Assembly: GCA_965243395.1 (NCBI GenBank)
Contig: CBDEUS010000001.1
Coordinates: 64,001 to 128,000, forward strand
From: Gammaproteobacteria bacterium
GTDB lineage: Bacteria > Pseudomonadota > Gammaproteobacteria > UBA4575
Direction: 5' to 3'
Length of the DNA stretch: 64,000 nt
Shown here: positions 24,174 to 56,397 of the stretch, piece after piece
Layout: each line of letters begins with the position of its first letter
Numbering within the stretch: position 1 is the stretch's first letter
Translations under genes and position numbers: made by a program
The notes under the pieces: generated by a model
What the model saw: only the letters and a program-made list of their open reading frames with translations
What the model was told of the DNA's origin: nothing
Databases searched by the model: none

Positions 24174-24214
24174 AAATTTGTTGGCAGGTTGGGAATATTA
24201 ATTAAGCTCTTTAA

Positions 24215-24244
24215 AATGACTGCTTTTGACTGAAAGCGGATAAC
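24215..24244 (+). repeat. 30-bp palindromic repeat, degenerate copy
   Basis: AATGACTGCTTT-TGACTG-AAAGCGGATAAC aligns without gaps to the 52-54 kb copies. Confidence 0.75.
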
Positions 24245-48181: not shown

Positions 48182-48427
48182 GTAACTTTTGTTCCTAAAA
48201 AAGGGCCTGCCTTCTATCGTATAAAAATAAGCTAGTCAGTATTAACCGAATACTCGCTTATCAAGCCACTCTATTTTATCTGACATTTGCGATTTCGTAT
48301 CTTGATCGCATGTACTTATTAAGCATTTCAAAATTCGGATAACTTTTTGCTTGGGGTTGCGTTAAACTAAAATCATTATTACTTGTCTGTATCTATTTGG
48401 GGGCTTTTTGAAACTGAATATTCGATT

Positions 48428-51400
48428 ATGGGCATTATAAATTTTTCAATTAAGAATCCGTTAGTCGTAAATCTTTTCCTAGTTCTCATTATTGTCTTAG
48501 GGGTAATTTCTTGGCGCAGTATGCCGCAGGAAATGTTCCCGGTAGTAGATATTGATCAGGTTCGTATTAATACTGAATTCGAGGGTGCGCCACCGGAAGA
48601 AGTTGAATCCCAAATTACTATTCCGATTGAAGAAGAGTTAGATGGCCTTGCTGATATTGATGTGATTACCTCCGAAAGCAATGAAGGCATTTCCAAAATT
48701 ATTATCAAGCTAAAGCCAGACGCAGATGTGGATGAATTTGTGCGTGATTTGAGATCTACGGTGGACGCAATTACTGATTTGCCCGATGAATCTGAAAGAT
48801 CTGATATCACGCGTTTGAAAACGCGTTTCCCTGTTATCAGTATGAGTGTTTACGGGGACGCTTCAATGGGCACATTAGTAGAAGCGGCTAAAGATATTAA
48901 AAGCCGTTTACAACAAATTGATGGTGTAGCCAGTGTAAGTATTGCTGGAGAACGTGAATGGGAACTTTGGATCGAAGTAGATCCATTTGCAATGTCCGCA
49001 CGTAAGGTTTCTTTATCTGTCGTGATATCCGCATTACAAAATAATCTTCGTGATCTTCCTGGTGGGTCGTTGAAAGCATCTGAGGGAGATATTTTATTGC
49101 GTGGCAAGGGTGCCGCACCAAATATAGAGGCGACTAAAAGAATTGTATTGCGTAGTGATAATAATGGCGGGCAATTAGTCTTAGATGAAGTAGCCGATGT
49201 ACAGCTCAGATTGGAAGAAACAAAAACATTAGGGCGGTTTAATAATAAACCATCAGTAAATTTAACCGTTACCAAAACAGCAAAAGCATCTACTATTGAA
49301 GTTTCAAACTTAGTAAGAGAACTTGCGTCAGAGTTACAAGAAGAGCTACCTAAAAATATACAGGTTGGATTATTTAGTGATTTATCGATTTATGTCAAAA
49401 CCCGTTTAGAAACTTTGAAGTCTTCTGGAGCAGTAGGTTTGTTCCTAGTTCTCTTGTCACTTTATTTATTCTTAAATTTTAGAGTGGCAGCCATTACAGC
49501 GTTAGGCATCCCAGTCTCTTTCTTAGTTGCTGTAATCATCATTAATTATCTTGGTTACACCATAAATATGGTTTCCATGTTTGCGTTTTTAATCGCGCTG
49601 GGAATGATTGTTGATGATGCCATTATTGTTACGGAAAATACGTATCGCCATATGGAAGAGGGCATGCAACCCATTCCAGCTGCGAAAGCGGGAGCGGGAG
49701 AAGTATTTTGGCCCGTAATGGCCTCAACCTGTACAACCATCGCAGCTTTTCTACCGATGTTTGGTGTATCAGGCACCTTGGGTTTATTCATTCAGGTAAT
49801 CCCCGTTGTAGTGACTGCTGCGTTGTTGGGTTCTCTTCTTGAAGCGTTTATCGTTTTACCATCTCATTCTGCTGAATTGTTGCGTGTTGCGAAACACAAA
49901 AAACGCAACAGAATAAATTGGCAAAAATGGCTTGATAAATATGTAACAGTGGTGAAATACGCGTTACAAAATCGATATTTTGTATCTGCTGTTACGGTAG
50001 GAGTGTTAAGCGTTGTTCTAGTATATTCAAAAATTCATATGCCATATAACCAATTTGGTGATGTAGAAATTGGTCAGTTTCTTGTCAATATTGAAGCACC
50101 TAATACTTACAGTACTGAAGATACTACTCAACTTGCCATTCAAATCGAAGATAAAATGAATGCAGTATTTCAAGAAAATGAATTAGATACTCTATTAACA
50201 AATGTTGGTGTGATCTTAATTGATTTTAATCGCCTGAAGTTGGGAAGTAATTACATTCAGTTTGTAGTCGATCTGAAAAAACCAAAACCGAAAGGATTTA
50301 TAGAGCGTTTTGTAAGTCCAATAGTGAATTTAAAATTTTCATCCACTGGGGTGCGTGAACGAAGTACAGAAGTTATTTTAGATGAAGTACGAGAAAGTGT
50401 TGCGACCATTCCAGGGATACAGCGCTTTTCTATATTGCGTCCTCAAGGTGGACCAGCAGGATCCGATATTGAAGTTGGTATAGTTGGCAAAGAAACTGAA
50501 AAACTTTTAGCTTTATCTGGTGAAGTTGTGACATTTTTGCGACGAGTTCCAGGCGTAAAAGATGTAAGACAAGACTTAGAGCCAGGAAAACTTGAATATC
50601 AGTACACAGTCAATTCACGTGGTCGTGAGTTAGGTTTAACTCAAGCTCAGATTGCTGACGCTGTGCGCACAGGCTATTTAGGCTTAGAAGTAATGCAAGT
50701 GAATTGGGAAGCTGATCGCTATCCTGTAAGAGTGATATATCCAGATACTATTCGTGAAGATGGTGCAGGATTAAAACGTTTGCCCATTACATTGGAGGAT
50801 GGTGGAACCGTTTATCTAGGCGAAGTTGCAGATATTGAGTTGGGCAGAGGCTTGGGTGTTGTACAAAGAAGAAATTCACAACGATTATCATTGATAACGG
50901 CAGAAGTAGATAAAGAAGCCATTACACCTTTAGAAGTAACGGAACTGCTAGCAGAAGAATTTAAGACTTTAAGCGATGATCATTATGGGTACTCATTGTT
51001 ATTTTTAGGCGAAAAGAAAGAAGCACAAGATTCCTTTAATGATATTGGAAATATGCTGATTGTTGCGCTGGCTATAATCTTTTTTATTCTAGCCGCATTG
51101 TTTAAATCATTGTTGGATCCATTTGTAATTATGTTTGCCATTCCGTTTGCTATCGTTGGAGTAATTGTTGGGCATATGTTATTTGGATATAACCTACAGT
51201 TTTTGTCTATGATTGGTTTCCTAGCCCTTACAGGGATAGTGGTGAACGATTCATTAATATTTATCGATTTCGCTAAAAAGCGAATTGCTGCAGGCGCAAG
51301 TTGTTTTGATGCTTTAGTAGATGCAGGACGCGTACGCATTCGGCCTATTCTTTTAACCACTGTAACTACGTTCTTAGGCATATCGCCTTTAATCTTTTTT

Positions 51401-51571
51401 GCCAGTGGTCAAACTGCTTTCTTGTCGCCCATGGCTGTGAGTTTAGGGTTTGGTCTTATATTCGCAACCATATTGATATTAATAGTACTACCGTGCTTTT
51501 ACATGATTGCAGATGACTTAAGAAATTATACTTATGCAAGGTTTAACAAAATGAAAACTATTCATGCATGA
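48428..51571 (+). CDS. RND efflux transporter (AcrB/AcrD/AcrF family)
   Basis: GAPPEEVE, GMIVDDAIIVTEN, GIVVNDS, RIRPILLTTVTT. Start reassigned to ATG 48428. Confidence 0.96.
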   Translation: MGIINFSIKNPLVVNLFLVLIIVLGVISWRSMPQEMFPVVDIDQVRINTEFEGAPPEEVESQITIPIEEELDGLADIDVITSESNEGISKIIIKLKPDADVDEFVRDLRSTVDAITDLPDESERSDITRLKTRFPVISMSVYGDASMGTLVEAAKDIKSRLQQIDGVASVSIAGEREWELWIEVDPFAMSARKVSLSVVISALQNNLRDLPGGSLKASEGDILLRGKGAAPNIEATKRIVLRSDNNGGQLVLDEVADVQLRLEETKTLGRFNNKPSVNLTVTKTAKASTIEVSNLVRELASELQEELPKNIQVGLFSDLSIYVKTRLETLKSSGAVGLFLVLLSLYLFLNFRVAAITALGIPVSFLVAVIIINYLGYTINMVSMFAFLIALGMIVDDAIIVTENTYRHMEEGMQPIPAAKAGAGEVFWPVMASTCTTIAAFLPMFGVSGTLGLFIQVIPVVVTAALLGSLLEAFIVLPSHSAELLRVAKHKKRNRINWQKWLDKYVTVVKYALQNRYFVSAVTVGVLSVVLVYSKIHMPYNQFGDVEIGQFLVNIEAPNTYSTEDTTQLAIQIEDKMNAVFQENELDTLLTNVGVILIDFNRLKLGSNYIQFVVDLKKPKPKGFIERFVSPIVNLKFSSTGVRERSTEVILDEVRESVATIPGIQRFSILRPQGGPAGSDIEVGIVGKETEKLLALSGEVVTFLRRVPGVKDVRQDLEPGKLEYQYTVNSRGRELGLTQAQIADAVRTGYLGLEVMQVNWEADRYPVRVIYPDTIREDGAGLKRLPITLEDGGTVYLGEVADIELGRGLGVVQRRNSQRLSLITAEVDKEAITPLEVTELLAEEFKTLSDDHYGYSLLFLGEKKEAQDSFNDIGNMLIVALAIIFFILAALFKSLLDPFVIMFAIPFAIVGVIVGHMLFGYNLQFLSMIGFLALTGIVVNDSLIFIDFAKKRIAAGASCFDALVDAGRVRIRPILLTTVTTFLGISPLIFFASGQTAFLSPMAVSLGFGLIFATILILIVLPCFYMIADDLRNYTYARFNKMKTIHA

Positions 51572-51685
51572 ATGTTGTGTGATCGAGAGTAATTTGTATC
51601 TATATAAATTTGTTGCAGTACATTCTTATCTATTTATCTTATAAATTAATACCTCTATTTAAGCTTCACTTATTTTTAATAAATT

Positions 51686-51988
51686 TTGCTTCCATCAAAA
51701 AAAGAAATTTTAGAATCTAACCCTCCATTCCTAATGGAACATCCAGCAGGTGACTGGTCTTTAATAAAAAAAATATCAAAAGTTAATGAGGGTCTTAATT
51801 TCACTGTTTTATACATGAATGAAAATACATTCTTGCAACGCGATATCTTAATTGATGTACCACCATTTTATGTCGGTGCTGATGTGTGGGAACTCGATCA
51901 TGGAACGGTATTGATGACATTGGAGCATCCAACCCTTAGTGAACATCCTGCAAAAACTATGTGGGAAAAGTGGAAGCATAGTCGTTAG
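51686..51988 (+). CDS. Hypothetical protein
   Basis: 100-aa ORF with TTG start and no recognised motif. Confidence 0.55.
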   Translation: MLPSKKEILESNPPFLMEHPAGDWSLIKKISKVNEGLNFTVLYMNENTFLQRDILIDVPPFYVGADVWELDHGTVLMTLEHPTLSEHPAKTMWEKWKHSR

Positions 51989-52039
51989 CAGTTAATCGCA
52001 TTAATCAAAAAATTTATAAATAAAAATCTGGAACTAAGT

Positions 52040-52645
52040 ATGAAAACCATTGAAGCTATATATAAACGTCGTGCAGTAAAGCATTTTGATAAAGATCATA
52101 AACTGACAAAAGAAGAGGAAACTCAGTTGTTTGAAGCTACTATCCAGGCACCTACTAGTTTTAATATTCAGCACTGGCGTTTTGTAATACTTCGCGATTC
52201 GCAATTACGTGATCGTATTCGCACTGAGTTTGGTAATGATCAATCACAAATGACGGATGCCTCGTTGCTTGTGTTATTTACTGCGGATGTGAACGCATGG
52301 AAAAAGAGTCCTGAACGCTATTGGAAGAATGCGCCCAAGGAAGTTGCAGAATTATTAGTTAACTGGATGGGACCTTTTCACGAAGGCAAGGACTGGTTGC
52401 AGCGAGATGAGGCACAACGCTCGATAGGTATGGCGATGCAAACCCTCATGCTTGCAGCACAAGAACTGGGTTATCAATCTTGTCCGATGATTGGGTTTGA
52501 CCATGAAAAGGTCGCGGAATTAATCAACTTACCTAAAGATTATGTAATAGGTCCGATGGTAGCGATTGGTAAAGGAATTAAAGAACCATGGCCGAAACCA
52601 GGACAGATTCCTTTAGACGAGCTTGTTGTAGAAAATTCATTTTAA
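52040..52645 (+). CDS. Nitroreductase family protein
   Basis: IYKRRAVKHF, APTSFNIQHWRF, LMLAAQELGYQSCPMIGFD. Confidence 0.93.
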   Translation: MKTIEAIYKRRAVKHFDKDHKLTKEEETQLFEATIQAPTSFNIQHWRFVILRDSQLRDRIRTEFGNDQSQMTDASLLVLFTADVNAWKKSPERYWKNAPKEVAELLVNWMGPFHEGKDWLQRDEAQRSIGMAMQTLMLAAQELGYQSCPMIGFDHEKVAELINLPKDYVIGPMVAIGKGIKEPWPKPGQIPLDELVVENSF

Positions 52646-52652
52646 AACATTG

Positions 52653-52682
52653 AATATCTACTATCGACCCATTGCGGATATT
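52653..52682 (+). repeat. 30-bp palindromic repeat, copy A1
   Basis: AATATCTACTAT-CGACCC-ATTGCGGATATT, 7 nt after the nitroreductase stop. Confidence 0.85.
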
Positions 52683-52704
52683 AAGAAATGTAGGAATTTA
52701 TATA

Positions 52705-53100
52705 ATGGAACAAATTAAAAAAATTAATCATGTGGGTATACGGGTAAGAGATTTGGAAAAATCCCGTGCCTTTTATGAACAGCTTGGGTTTAAGTTCATT
52801 ATCGGTCCAATTGGCCCTGAACCAGTGGCCATTATGGAACATCCGTCTGGAGTTAATATAAATTTTATAATCAATGCTTCTGAAAATGCATCAGAGAAAA
52901 ATATTCTTATGGATGTGTCTGAACGACACACTGGTTACACACACATGGCATTGGAAATCACCGATCGAAATTCTGTATTACAACAGTTGAGTGATTTAAA
53001 TATCCCGATTACAGAGACAGTGGAATTAGAAGATGGAACAGTCTTTTTCTTTATTCGTGACCCGGATGGAAATGTGATTGAGTTTCATGATCCTGCTTAA
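52705..53100 (+). CDS. VOC/glyoxalase family protein
   Basis: INHVGIRVRDLEKSRAFY, THMALE, FIRDPDGNVIEF. Start reassigned to ATG 52705 (AGGA RBS). Confidence 0.93.
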   Translation: MEQIKKINHVGIRVRDLEKSRAFYEQLGFKFIIGPIGPEPVAIMEHPSGVNINFIINASENASEKNILMDVSERHTGYTHMALEITDRNSVLQQLSDLNIPITETVELEDGTVFFFIRDPDGNVIEFHDPA

Positions 53101-53130
53101 TTATGATCCTTTCGACCCAAAGCGGACATT
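53101..53130 (+). repeat. 30-bp palindromic repeat, copy A2
   Basis: TTATGATCCTTT-CGACCC-AAAGCGGACATT directly after the VOC stop. Confidence 0.88.
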
Positions 53131-53136
53131 GAAAGC

Positions 53137-53313
53137 ATGAATAACTTTATACATTTTCCGTCTTTCATCATTGCAATTTTAGTTGCTAGCGGAATTGCAT
53201 TTGCTGTTAGTTATTTTACCGGTCTTTCATTTGTAATTTGCCTACTTATCGTAATAGCGGCCATTTTCCTAAATGGAATCATTATTGCTTTTACAGAAGG
53301 CAAGAATAACTAA
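53137..53313 (+). CDS. Small two-TM membrane protein (58 aa; not in the ORF track)
   Basis: MNNFIHFPSFIIAILVASGIAFAVSYFTGLSFVICLLIVIAAIFLNGIIIAFTEGKNN; fills the interval between two repeats almost exactly. Confidence 0.75.
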   Translation: MNNFIHFPSFIIAILVASGIAFAVSYFTGLSFVICLLIVIAAIFLNGIIIAFTEGKNN

Positions 53314-53315
53314 CT

Positions 53316-53345
53316 AATGTCCGGTATCGACCCAAAGCGGACATT
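53316..53345 (+). repeat. 30-bp palindromic repeat, copy A3
   Basis: AATGTCCGGTAT-CGACCC-AAAGCGGACATT. Confidence 0.92.
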
Positions 53346-53364
53346 TGAATAAGTTACTTTCGTT

Positions 53365-53730
53365 ATGGAAAAATTAGAAATTGGTGATCGCATTAAACTA
53401 TCAGGTGGTTATGATAATAACCCGCTTTGGTTGAAAGGCGGCAGTGGGTATAACGCAAAAGTGACAGGATTTTTTGACAATGAAACAGAGGGACGTAGAG
53501 ATGATTCACGTATTTCCGCATCAATAGAGTTTGATAAAGAAATTGAATATGAAGGAATTAAGGGGAAATATGGATTTATTTTGGGACGATGGGAAGGCCA
53601 AAAATGGGAAAAAAGTGGAACTGTTCATTGTCATATATGTAGTGTTCCTATTTCTAAAGCAAGTGATATAACAAAAGAAAATACTGTATGGGCAGAATCA
53701 CATGCACATTATGAATGCATTTACAGTTGA
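53365..53730 (+). CDS. Hypothetical protein (cassette-like)
   Basis: 121-aa ORF bounded by repeats A3 and A4. Confidence 0.75.
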   Translation: MEKLEIGDRIKLSGGYDNNPLWLKGGSGYNAKVTGFFDNETEGRRDDSRISASIEFDKEIEYEGIKGKYGFILGRWEGQKWEKSGTVHCHICSVPISKASDITKENTVWAESHAHYECIYS

Positions 53731-53749
53731 ATTAATTATTAAAAATTAA

Positions 53750-53779
53750 TACGTCTGCTATTGGCCGAATGCGGATATT
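53750..53779 (+). repeat. 30-bp palindromic repeat, copy A4
   Basis: TACGTCTGCTAT-TGGCCG-AATGCGGATATT. Confidence 0.88.
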
Positions 53780-53800
53780 TTTGAATCAGGATTTATACAT

Positions 53801-54301
53801 ATAAATACAAAAATAAAAACACCGCTAATTTATATCATCCTTATAATATATATAACGGGATGTCCTGCTGCGCATTTACAATCTAGAAATATTCAATCTC
53901 TTAAAGTTGGATTTGATGTTGATCAAAAACGAGAAAAATTACTAGAAAATAATGATGCAGTTGATGAGTTTGCAAAAATCATCAGTGATGTTATGGAATC
54001 TGAGAAATTCAAATTATCTCTGAGTAATACCTCATATGGTTTAATACCGCATACAGGTCATACTCAGAATCTAATTTTTACACTTACGAATAATTCTCAT
54101 GTTAGATGTGTGATCATGATTTCAAAAACATATTTTTCTGCGAATTTTACTGAATTAGAATCCGCTCCTGAAACTAATATGTTTAAAACAAATGAAGATG
54201 ATATTGCAATGATTGAAAATGCTGTTATTAAACTAAAGGAGTCTGTTGAAAAGACGTATCCAGAGCGATCGGTTAAAATATCCAATTTTTATAATAATTA
54301 A
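53801..54301 (+). CDS. Hypothetical lipoprotein with ATA (non-canonical or mutated) start
   Basis: The frame of ORF 53993-54301 is open back to ATA 53801, which has an AGGA RBS; N-terminus (I)NTKIKTPLIYIILIIYITGC is a lipoprotein-like signal. Confidence 0.6.
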   Translation: MNTKIKTPLIYIILIIYITGCPAAHLQSRNIQSLKVGFDVDQKREKLLENNDAVDEFAKIISDVMESEKFKLSLSNTSYGLIPHTGHTQNLIFTLTNNSHVRCVIMISKTYFSANFTELESAPETNMFKTNEDDIAMIENAVIKLKESVEKTYPERSVKISNFYNN

Positions 54302-54330
54302 ATGACCGCTATTGGCCAAAAGCGGTCATT
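54301..54330 (+). repeat. 30-bp palindromic repeat, copy A5
   Basis: AATGACCGCTAT-TGGCCA-AAAGCGGTCATT with perfect 10-bp arms; overlaps the last base of the stop codon. Confidence 0.92.
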
Positions 54331-54384
54331 TCTAAAAACAACGGATATGCTCAGATTATTTTTCAGTATTTAGTAAATTAAGAA

Positions 54385-56397
54385 TTAAAGTAAAGGCGCA
54401 ATTACCAAACTTACAATTGCCATTACGTTAATTAAAATATTCATCGAAGGACCTGAGGTATCTTTGAAAGGATCACCAACAGTGTCGCCCACCACTACAG
54501 CTTTATGTGTATCAGAACCTTTGCCACCGAGGTTTCCTTTTTCAACATATTTTTTGGCATTGTCCCAAGCGCCGCCGGCGTTGGCCATCATAAGTGCAAG
54601 CAGGACACATCCAAGCAGTGCGCCTCCCAACATGCCGCCCAAAGTTTCTGCGCCAAATCCAAAACCGACCACTACTGGGGCGATGACCGCTAGCAAACCT
54701 GGTGGGACCATGCGTTTTAAAGCAGCAGTGGTTGCGATATCCACACAACGCACAGTGTCAGGTTTTGCAGTGCCTTCTAGCAAGCCGGGGATTTCTTTAA
54801 ATTGACGTCGAATTTCTTTAATCATATCGAATGCCGCATCACCCACTGCTGTCATCGTCATCGAAGCAACAAGAAATGGAAAGATGCCACCAATAAATAA
54901 ACCAATCAGTACCATTGGATTACTTAAATCTAAAACAATAGAGCCGCTACCGTGAGTACTTACTTCCGCCAGGAAAGCTGTGATGATGGCAAGTGCTGCA
55001 AGAGCCGCTGCACCAATGGCAAACCCTTTTCCAATTGCAGCTGTAGTATTGCCGACTTCATCTAACTCATCTGTGATTTTGCGGACGTCTTCACCAAGCT
55101 CGGCCATTTCTGCAATACCACCCGCATTGTCTGCAACCGGACCATAGGCATCAATTGCCATAGTGATGCCAACGGTTGCAAGCATTCCGACTGCTGCAAT
55201 ACCTACGCCATAGAGATCTGCAAATTGATTCGCAAAGAAAATAATTGCGGCTATGCTCGCTATAGGAACAACCACTGACTGCATGCCAGTAGCTAAGCCT
55301 GAAATCATTACGGTTGCCGGCCCTGTTTCACCACCTGCAGCAATTTTTCTAATTGGGCTTCCACCTGTGTAGTACTCGGTAACCAAGCCAATAATGATTC
55401 CACCTACTGCGCCAGATAGTACCGCTACCCAAACACCAGTGCTTATGCCGAGTTGTGTGATTACAAAATATGCTGCAATGATAAATATTATCGCAGCAGA
55501 AAAAGTTCCAATGCGTAATGCTGTGGCAGGTGATTTACCTGAAACAATTTTTACCAGAATGATTCCAATGATAGAACAAACGATTCCGGTAGAAGCTAAA
55601 CCTAAAGGTAAAAACATTAACGTTGATTTTTCGCCTAAGCGCTCAAGGATCGCAGGTCCTAGAGTTGCGGCAATGGCTATGGTTGCAATGATGGAACCAC
55701 AGTAAGATTCGAATATATCAGAACCCATGCCAGCAACATCACCCACGTTATCCCCAACGTTATCCGCGATGACTCCAGGATTACGAGGGTCATCTTCGGG
55801 AATTCCGGCTTCAACTTTTCCAACAAGATCGGCACCCACGTCCGCACTTTTAGTGTAAATGCCGCCACCCACACGTGAGAACAGTGCAACGGTAGACGCG
55901 CCCATTCCAAACCCATGAATAACGTTTGCCGTTGCTGGGTCACGTCCGAACATGAGATACAAAGTCCCTAAACCCAGTAAGCCCATGGCAGCTACGGTCA
56001 AACCCATAATGGAGCCACCAAAGAATGCGACATTTAAAGCCGCATCTGCACCATGTTCTTTTGCGGCAGAGGTAGTGCGCACATTTGCGCGTGTAGCGGT
56101 ATACATTCCGATGTAACCCGCGGCAGATGAAGAAATTGCACCAATTATGAATGCGATTGCGGTGTTCGCACCCAGATCTGAAATCCATATTGCCGCCACA
56201 ACAAAGGCAGCAAAGATATACATGATAGTGTATTCACGACGCATAAAAGTCATGGCACCTGTATGAATTTCTTCAGCAATTTCAAGTACTTTGCCGGTTC
56301 CGGCCGAGTACCTTAAAACAACGCGGTAGATAATGAATGCTGAAATCAGGCCTACTATCCCCAGGATGACGGGTAGTTGATGCATGGATAAGGTCAT
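54385..56397 (-). CDS. hppA: Membrane-bound ion-translocating pyrophosphatase, K+-dependent type
   Basis: [53 protein letters not shown]. Confidence 0.96.

Follow-up and report, generated by a model that had tools for sequence, protein, structure and literature searches.

The window considered here, i.e. the whole 64-kb stretch of DNA that was analysed (C1:64001-128000 of the source genome, labelled G000, which comprises 2.58 Mb in two contigs with 38% GC), carries at 52040-54330 an array of five small and unrelated open reading frames (ORFs) on the + strand, enclosed by two housekeeping genes, where each ORF is followed by one copy of a short site. With about an even chance of being right, these sites can be regarded as the recombination core sites of a site-specific-recombination cassette system, of which the array in the window would be an orphan with partly decayed sites. 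The same site is clustered along the genome with a fixed polarity relative to the genes, bounds modules that occupy different loci in different genomes, is conserved across phyla, and is associated in some relatives (numbered G001 onwards) with a rare family of Xer-like tyrosine recombinases, referred to as REC379.

The core of the site is 28 bp long and consists of two 11-bp inverted arms (consensus ATGTCCGCTTT and AAAGCGGACAT) on either side of a 6-bp asymmetric centre, an 11-6-11 arrangement that is the layout of tyrosine-recombinase core sites, namely dif, loxP-type and attC simple sites. Two types can be distinguished by the centre, i.e. type A with CGACCC (copies c1 to c3 in the window) and type B with TGGCCG or TGGCCA (c4 and c5), and the portion conserved across the five window copies is the 6-nt centre together with the right arm. 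An earlier note on this DNA had placed the copies at 52653, 53101, 53316, 53750 and 54301, and all of them are exactly there: with a core pattern made of the invariant columns of the five sites (TNTNGNCCNANNGCGGNNATT, at most one mismatch), six matches are obtained in the window, namely c1 to c5 with c5 matching on both strands, as against 0.08 expected, and six matches were reached in none of 100 shuffles.

Along the array, the first cassette gene (52040-52645, +; 201 aa, nitroreductase family, PF00881, E 7.5e-29) is followed by c1 (52653-52682, +; type A, centre at 52665-52670, left arm degenerate), and the second, of the VOC/glyoxalase family (52705-53100, +; 131 aa from the ATG, PF00903, E 3.1e-13), for which an upstream TTG at 52672 overlaps c1, by c2 (53101-53130, +; type A, left arm degenerate), which begins straight after the stop codon. 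The third is a hydrophobic ORF of 58 aa belonging to no family (53137-53313, +), which its reading frame and position suggest to be a real gene, and is followed by c3 (53316-53345, +; type A), a hairpin near the family consensus, of which identical 30-mers occur elsewhere in G000 and also in its closest relative, G012. The fourth cassette gene (53365-53730, +) encodes a 121-aa protein without Pfam or NCBIfam family and precedes c4 (53750-53779, +; type B, centre TGGCCG at 53762-53767, left arm degenerate), and the fifth is a lipoprotein-like ORF with a lipobox (ITGC) and no family (53801-54301, +), which runs into c5 (54301-54330, not assigned to a strand; type B, centre TGGCCA), a near-perfect palindrome that ends the array against a convergent gene. 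The packing is tight, with 7, 0, 2, 19 and -1 nt from stop codon to site for c1 to c5, 22, 6, 19 and about 21 nt between a site and the start codon after it, and intergenic spacers of 59, 36, 51, 70 and 83 nt.

Regarding the fold, the description of every copy as a 30-bp palindrome holds for c3 (-7.9 kcal/mol, z -4.13) and c5 (-11.4 kcal/mol, z -6.75), which fold as DNA hairpins, and is too strong for the three others, since c1, c2 and c4 have degenerate left arms, form no stable hairpin and fold no better than shuffles (z 0.58, 0.24 and -0.10, respectively). Among the 116 type A sites of the bacterial family with at least one good arm (9/12 or better), 51 have a good right arm only and a single one a good left arm only, non-consensus Watson-Crick pairs number from 0 to 6 per stem position, an A.A mismatch occupies the fifth pair in 52 sites and a G.T pair the seventh in 49, the same A-for-T change of the left arm being also present in composites of Noviluteimonas. 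As the stem shows no covariation and the centre is as conserved as the arms, what is under selection, as judged from the alignments, is the sequence and not the hairpin fold, which would reflect sequence-specific recognition and the matching of a crossover region between partners. Other readings of the motif were dropped, namely a leader peptide translated through the site, with reading frames inconsistent among the copies, a mimic of the tRNA T-loop, which is not conserved in the family variant, and a presumed likeness of the arms to an uptake signal sequence or to resolvase half-sites.

At the scale of the genome, a profile built with nhmmer from 24 strict matches returns 81 sites in G000 (E<0.05), 73 of which have a neighbour within 3 kb, when 1000 trials of random placement yield 13.8 on average and 28 at most. 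The sites make up 23 groups, of which the three largest number 13, 11 and 10 members, and 79 of them are intergenic under a simple ORF model. Their distribution is thus not the even spread after core genes that the earlier note had named as the mark of an ordinary repeat: both neighbouring genes lie on the strand reading CGACCC in 26 of the 29 A sites, for a genome-wide proportion of 73% of same-strand adjacent pairs, and the next start codon comes 0-49 nt downstream in 25 of them. B sites also keep one polarity in the arrays that were read, this window included, with TGGCCG on the coding strand, and nine of the 52 lie between convergent genes. In some arrays, the junction is made of a B site, a linker of about 43 nt and an A site, which together form a composite of about 102 nt conserved in the genus. 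The arrays consist of co-oriented small genes; out of 149 ORFs in and around them, 73 have no Pfam family, the others being small enzymes and proteins with domains of unknown function, e.g. GNAT, glyoxalase, SnoaL, OsmC, nucleases and an immunity protein, and the only recombinases found among them with Pfam are the canonical XerC and XerD, whose genes are situated a few kb away from two small arrays.

The locus is hypervariable. It is delimited on the left by an RND efflux permease gene (48383-51571, +; NCBIfam RND_permease families), with orthologues at 85-94% identity in 13 of the 14 genus relatives, and on the right by hppA, which encodes a membrane pyrophosphatase (54385-56397, -; NCBIfam NF001961, 1085 bits), with orthologues at 86-99% identity in 11 of the 14. 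In the six relatives with both flanks on one contig, the interval between permease and hppA ranges from 2.2 to 10.3 kb and contains sites as well, and none of the five window genes is present there. The one gene shared in the interval, and with G012 alone, is an ORF of 100 aa next to the permease gene (51686-51988, +; without match in Pfam or NCBIfam), with 77% amino-acid identity at the same position in G012 and missing from the other five syntenic loci; homology between both genomes stops right after its stop codon. The supposition that gene order would be fixed among relatives is hence contradicted. Besides, of the largest array of G000 (9.5 kb, 13 sites), five relatives possess nothing more than the flank and a few isolated genes, and in G012 a 16-kb array of about 24 cassettes with composites of B, 42 nt and A (L170:69-16056) stands between the gene of a 496-aa core protein and a tRNA gene, where the matching locus of G000 (C1:547585-547645) is empty, i.e. 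two genes about 60 nt apart without any site.

Modules have also changed place. The earlier note had proposed to look for the same genes in other genomes, and site-bounded modules are indeed found at different loci in different genomes. The permease-hppA interval of G012 holds three modules found at three other places in G000, the best case being a module of 1.6 kb with 92% nucleotide identity, flanked on both sides by sites in G012 and terminating within one in G000. The VOC gene and its 3' A site recur together in G021, a member of a different genus, in another context. A DNA orthologue of the nitroreductase gene (74-86% identity) is present in 12 of the 14 genus relatives and in G022, and in all seven contexts that were inspected it lies elsewhere than in the permease-hppA interval, at three loci: it adjoins the orthologue of G000 C1_673033 in five genomes, sits between two other core genes in G012, and stands in G022 beside a SnoaL gene which, in G000, is a cassette located 170 kb away.

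Beyond the closest relatives, a 17-mer spanning the centre and right arm (at most one mismatch) is found in 22 of 41 relatives, including 13 of the 14 in the genus, with up to 111 copies in one genome and no match for the control. In named genomes, an exact scan with the 17-mer gives at least 118 stretches, for about 70 expected by chance in 596 Gb; among the matches listed, the left arm is also present (at least 6 of 9 positions) in 85 of 128 occurrences, which chance does not give. The carriers among these matches include Noviluteimonas, Lysobacter, Frateuria, Dyella, Caulobacter, Sphingomonas, Sphingomicrobium, Kiloniella and Nitrospinaceae, among others, and the GC content of the records listed extends from 35 to 71%. 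Noviluteimonas caseinilytica has 42 matches to the pattern, nearly all in one array of 36 kb, and with nhmmer 64 sites in 58 kb, arranged in units of A, gene, B, short spacer and A, and one Caulobacter genome has 34 matches in several arrays. As G000 encodes no homologues of the cassette proteins found in the Noviluteimonas and Caulobacter arrays, the site is not carried along by shared genes and is instead maintained by selection in each lineage. Mobile replicons contribute little, with two weak matches among 72,556 plasmid records and viral contigs nearly free of the site.

Concerning the enzyme, the earlier note had found no recombinase in the window and this is borne out, with zero match to recombinase or transposase families among its 75 ORFs (NCBIfam, E<=1e-5); the five tyrosine recombinases of G000 are all encoded outside it. 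In the relatives, the sites are associated with REC379, a family of Xer-like tyrosine recombinases of 375-383 aa. In G019, the relative with the most sites, the gene of a 379-aa member is divergent from an array and has a half-site 25 nt after its stop codon, and a paralogue (47% identical) lies 7 nt after the last B site of the same array. A site or half-site is found 6-63 nt after REC379 for both copies of G019, in G003, where it follows the stop codon by 6 nt, and in two of seven metagenome loci (L228 and L232), 32 and 63 nt past the end of the recombinase match, and at a third metagenome locus an array lies 345 nt upstream of the gene; in a control set of 18 loci encoding other tyrosine recombinases, no site exceeds 9 bits. 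Three cases are informative, and in each the polarity of the site beside REC379 is opposite to that in ordinary cassettes, so that the gene would face the array as an integrase gene faces its cassettes.

The family is rare, with only 15 proteins at E<=1e-10 among 5.8 billion, each of them either without a name or under a generic one. It is present, intact or fragmentary, in seven of 56 genomes of the bacterial family, all seven of which carry the motif, i.e. intact in G019, G003 and G045, disrupted or reduced to fragments in G005, G001, G002 and G003, and truncated by the end of a contig in G021; in the genera searched that gave no motif match, REC379 is likewise absent. The best profiles are XerA, XerC and XerD, all under their cut-offs, the sole match in the PDB is 4a8e, a XerC-like recombinase, and the invariant residues R221, H314, R317, H340 and Y350 would fit the order of the catalytic signature. 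Altogether, REC379 is the most likely cognate enzyme in the bacterial family of G000; recombination would occur at the sites under its catalysis, and arrays in genomes free of REC379 would be either orphans or served in trans.

Other enzymes were considered and rejected, namely IntI, the transposases of the Y1 type associated with repetitive extragenic palindromic (REP) elements (REP-associated tyrosine transposases, RAYTs), serine recombinases and the P4-like integrase of G000. At the 265-bit cut-off of TIGR02249, no IntI is found in G000, G019, G072, G073 or G076, the best matches being XerC/XerD-like with at most 83 bits; no Y1/RAYT transposase (PF01797, E<=0.01) is found in G000, G012, G019, G072, G073 or G076, when the same profile detects one in six of 14 reference genomes used as control; and serine recombinases (PF00239) are missing from G000 and from 10 of the 14 genus relatives, nearly all of which carry the motif. 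Canonical Xer proteins were also discarded. G000 keeps canonical XerC and XerD together with a canonical dif at C1:959290, near the GC-skew maximum, and the arms and centre of this dif are unlike the motif, so the proximity of Xer genes to some sites was judged a coincidence of hot spots; an Xer-like gene is present in three of 118 distant loci. As observations on the same subject, the canonical Xer genes of G000 lie about 3 kb from two-site arrays (C1:422914-427334 and C2:247853-251932), with xerD beside dsbC and xerC beside a DUF484 gene and hslVU, and in G019 three sites lie 3.6-5 kb from xerC.

Taken as a mechanism, the site would be the crossover point of a system storing one-gene modules in arrays at chromosomal hot spots, the modules leaving or entering as two sites of like type recombine. 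Co-orientation of the genes would follow from the fixed polarity of the centre, and the invariance of the centre and of one arm among very different genomes from the need for compatibility with a shared cassette pool and its recombinase. The array in the window would then be an orphan, comparable to a cluster of integron cassettes without integrase, a view based on the lack of a dedicated enzyme in G000 and on the decay of the left arm in three of the five sites. The earlier idea of a gene-capture or shuffling system with a recombinase acting in trans thus finds partial support, in clustering, polarity, variable gene order and relocation, and not in recombination as such or in its enzyme, no plausible one being encoded in G000.

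Several results weigh against such a cassette system. G000 contains neither REC379 nor IntI nor any serine recombinase, and none of the 14 genus relatives shares its single strain-specific integrase. REC379, absent as well from G012, could not be detected in three distant carriers of the site (Noviluteimonas, Caulobacter and Sphingomicrobium), so that it cannot explain on its own the conservation across phyla; the flanks of the Noviluteimonas and Caulobacter arrays contain no recombinase, and over 118 diverse loci no recurrent protein family accompanies the site, clustering of the ORFs yielding common families only (kinases, LysR regulators, SDR enzymes, ABC transporters). In six of seven relatives, the nitroreductase orthologue has no adjacent site, and the left boundary of the array in the window, after the 100-aa ORF, is devoid of a site too. 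Homology ending near sites is also partly trivial, given that nearly every spacer of an array is a site. Finally, no recombination product, excision junction or circle was detected in the assembled contigs of four sequencing runs, where contig joints such as 53129>53316 and 53345>54300 were not counted as they rest on 21-30 nt of repeat.

Among the alternatives, the sites could be REP-like intergenic hairpins that stabilise, terminate or insulate cistrons and accumulate in islands varying for other reasons. The location of 79 of the 81 sites between genes, just after stop codons and with a polarity fixed relative to transcription, would suit such elements, as would the nine B sites between convergent genes, the strong hairpins of c3 and c5, and the resemblance of the B/A pairs and their conserved linker of about 43 nt to composites of the type of bacterial interspersed mosaic elements (BIMEs). 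Yet three of the five window copies are unable to form a hairpin, compensatory changes in the stems are nearly lacking, with a mismatch fixed in 52 of 116 sites, conservation of the 6-nt centre extends over several phyla with 35-71% GC, and the sites are clustered instead of dispersed. Neither a RAYT, in six motif-rich genomes, nor an Rfam family, the matches over 51500-54800 being at chance level (E 4.6-9.4), can be put forward; terminator U-tracts are absent from the window sites, as the earlier note had it, save for one weak match within c5. A role as REP-like hairpins is therefore considered unlikely, without being far-fetched.

Less probable still is that no dedicated recombinase exists and that the repeats of 28-30 bp, or the composites of about 102 bp, merely provide portable homology for general recombination after DNA uptake. 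Many motif-rich genomes, G000 included, lack a candidate enzyme, the arrays are located at hot spots of a classical kind, flanked by conserved genes or next to a tRNA gene, and the repeats are long enough for alignment across arrays. Homology anchors, however, need neither a palindrome nor a fixed asymmetric centre nor the same sequence in different phyla, and they leave unexplained why one recombinase family is adjacent to the sites.

The sites could also be operators of a conserved dimeric DNA-binding regulator, which would silence or co-regulate acquired genes. The palindromic 11-6-11 layout is compatible with this, for 25 of the 29 A sites the distance to the next start codon, located downstream, is 0-49 nt, and a promoter-like TTGGAA-17-TAAAAT, spotted by eye, lies just upstream of the A site in the composites of the genus. 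But no regulator was identified, B sites are located at 3' ends and between convergent genes, the centre is conserved as much as the arms, and arrays of up to 64 sites as well as site-bounded relocation would be left unaccounted for, which makes an operator very unlikely. As for a miniature transposable element of the inverted-repeat kind (MITE) inserting between genes, with the sites as its ends or remnants, the composite of about 102 nt with perfect outer inverted repeats (B left arm and A right arm) and many copies in the genus is its best argument, but the window has single sites only, orientation is uniform within arrays and no Y1 transposase was found, which renders it highly improbable.

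Coming back to a cassette system, the systems most akin to it among those known are integrons and, on Acinetobacter plasmids, dif modules. Integrons, the classic means by which bacteria stock and rearrange single genes, associate an IntI integrase, attC sites and promoterless cassettes, and clusters of attC sites lacking an integrase are designated CALINs. The likeness to integrons and CALINs resides in co-oriented, tightly packed modules, mostly with a single gene of unknown function and each followed by a recombination-type site, in an extreme turnover between relatives, and in arrays persisting without enzyme; as in integrons, two simple sites may combine into a composite whose outer arms are conserved and whose inner arms are degenerate. 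Conversely, no IntI exceeds the cut-off in five genomes, and the boxes of attC sites are absent, in agreement with the earlier note, since no RYYYAAC...GTTRRRY pair 35-135 nt apart occurs at 51900-54450 on either strand. The single sites are 28-30 nt long, in one case within a spacer of only 36 nt, when attC sites are longer than 36 nt, and the sequence rather than the fold is conserved. Moreover, the same site sequence is encountered in records of Alphaproteobacteria and Nitrospinota, and integrons are not known to have been reported from Alphaproteobacteria.

In Acinetobacter plasmids, small accessory modules are bounded by 28-bp sites of 11-6-11 layout and shuffled between contexts, as described in two reports (PMC13141974, PMC6449649). 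Such modules (pdif sites, XerC/XerD) are alike in that 11-6-11 sites of 28 bp bound small accessory modules. They differ in that the motif is here unrelated in sequence to G000's own dif and in that its two arms are nearly the same, which points to a single protein instead of a XerC/XerD pair; the A sites are direct instead of alternating, the arrays are chromosomal with up to 64 sites, and the site is almost absent from plasmids.

With the Xer systems relying on a single recombinase, namely XerS/difSL, XerH/difH and archaeal XerA/dif, the resemblance, seen in relatives and metagenomes but not in G000, which lacks the gene, is an Xer-like gene directly beside a palindromic site of about 28 bp, and the best profile and structure matches of REC379 are of the XerA type; the linkage of the XerS gene to its site is reported in PMC2731167. 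In those systems, however, there is one dimer-resolution site per replicon and not tens to hundreds bounding accessory genes, and G000 still has its canonical dif, XerC and XerD. REP/BIME-RAYT systems have in common short intergenic palindromes near stop codons, sometimes paired with a linker, and are set apart by the absence here of RAYT and of covariation, by arrays that are not dispersed and by a sequence common to several phyla; the consensus lacks the GTAG tag at its 5' end, a few distant copies starting with CGTC. Small serine recombinases act on 26-bp sites of 12-2-12 layout.

In the literature, the motif strings do not appear in the available portion of a survey of REP sequences (PMC3733652), four 11-mers of the motif retrieve unrelated primers only from full texts, and the articles searched, figures and supplements lying outside the search, contain no description of the site, of non-integron cassette arrays or of REP-flanked cassettes of such a kind. 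Tentatively, and with less assurance than for a cassette system as such, this could represent a third cassette system beside integrons and dif modules, characterised by one 28-bp site with an asymmetric centre, present in Gamma-, Alpha- and Betaproteobacteria and in Nitrospinota, with chromosomal arrays of up to dozens of single-gene modules, Xer-like recombinases as the driving enzymes, themselves often lost, and orphan arrays as a result. If so, a second cassette system across phyla would alter the reading of accessory-gene flux in environmental bacteria, mobile single-gene modules would be recognisable in metagenomes by a simple sequence tag, and a compact 28-bp site, possibly with its recombinase, would be at hand for study. 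It also becomes testable whether cassette clusters devoid of integrase are fossils or are served in trans.

A few further observations concern individual genes and loci. The lipoprotein-like ORF of the window is open from 53750 and has no ATG, GTG or TTG before 53993, its first canonical start, which lies 3' of the lipobox; an in-frame ATA at 53801 would give a good signal peptide and lipobox (…LIIYITGC). The start may have been altered by a point mutation, the codon may be a rare start, or the gene may be dead. The 1.6-kb module shared by G000 and G012 carries the gene of a 400-aa EAL/HDOD protein (G000 C1:290046-291248, G012 L133:1435-2637), which is on the opposite strand within arrays at different loci in both genomes. 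In G012, at L192:1-3210 (G012:C8:23000-26210), a large serine recombinase gene is directly beside another array, together with ORFs of 246 aa (RES-domain by eye) and 308 aa (restriction-endonuclease-like by eye). In G019, at L208:14509-14691, at least four tandem copies of a 9-10-nt fragment from the left arm (ATGACCGCTT) stand directly before a B site and may be the trace of slippage or of aberrant recombination at the site. Lastly, a solitary and degenerate site (19.9 bits with nhmmer) is located in the window far from the arrays, at 24213-24241 on the + strand (C1:88213-88241), 3' of a gene of the UbiH (ubiquinone-hydroxylase) family and before that of an ABC substrate-binding protein.

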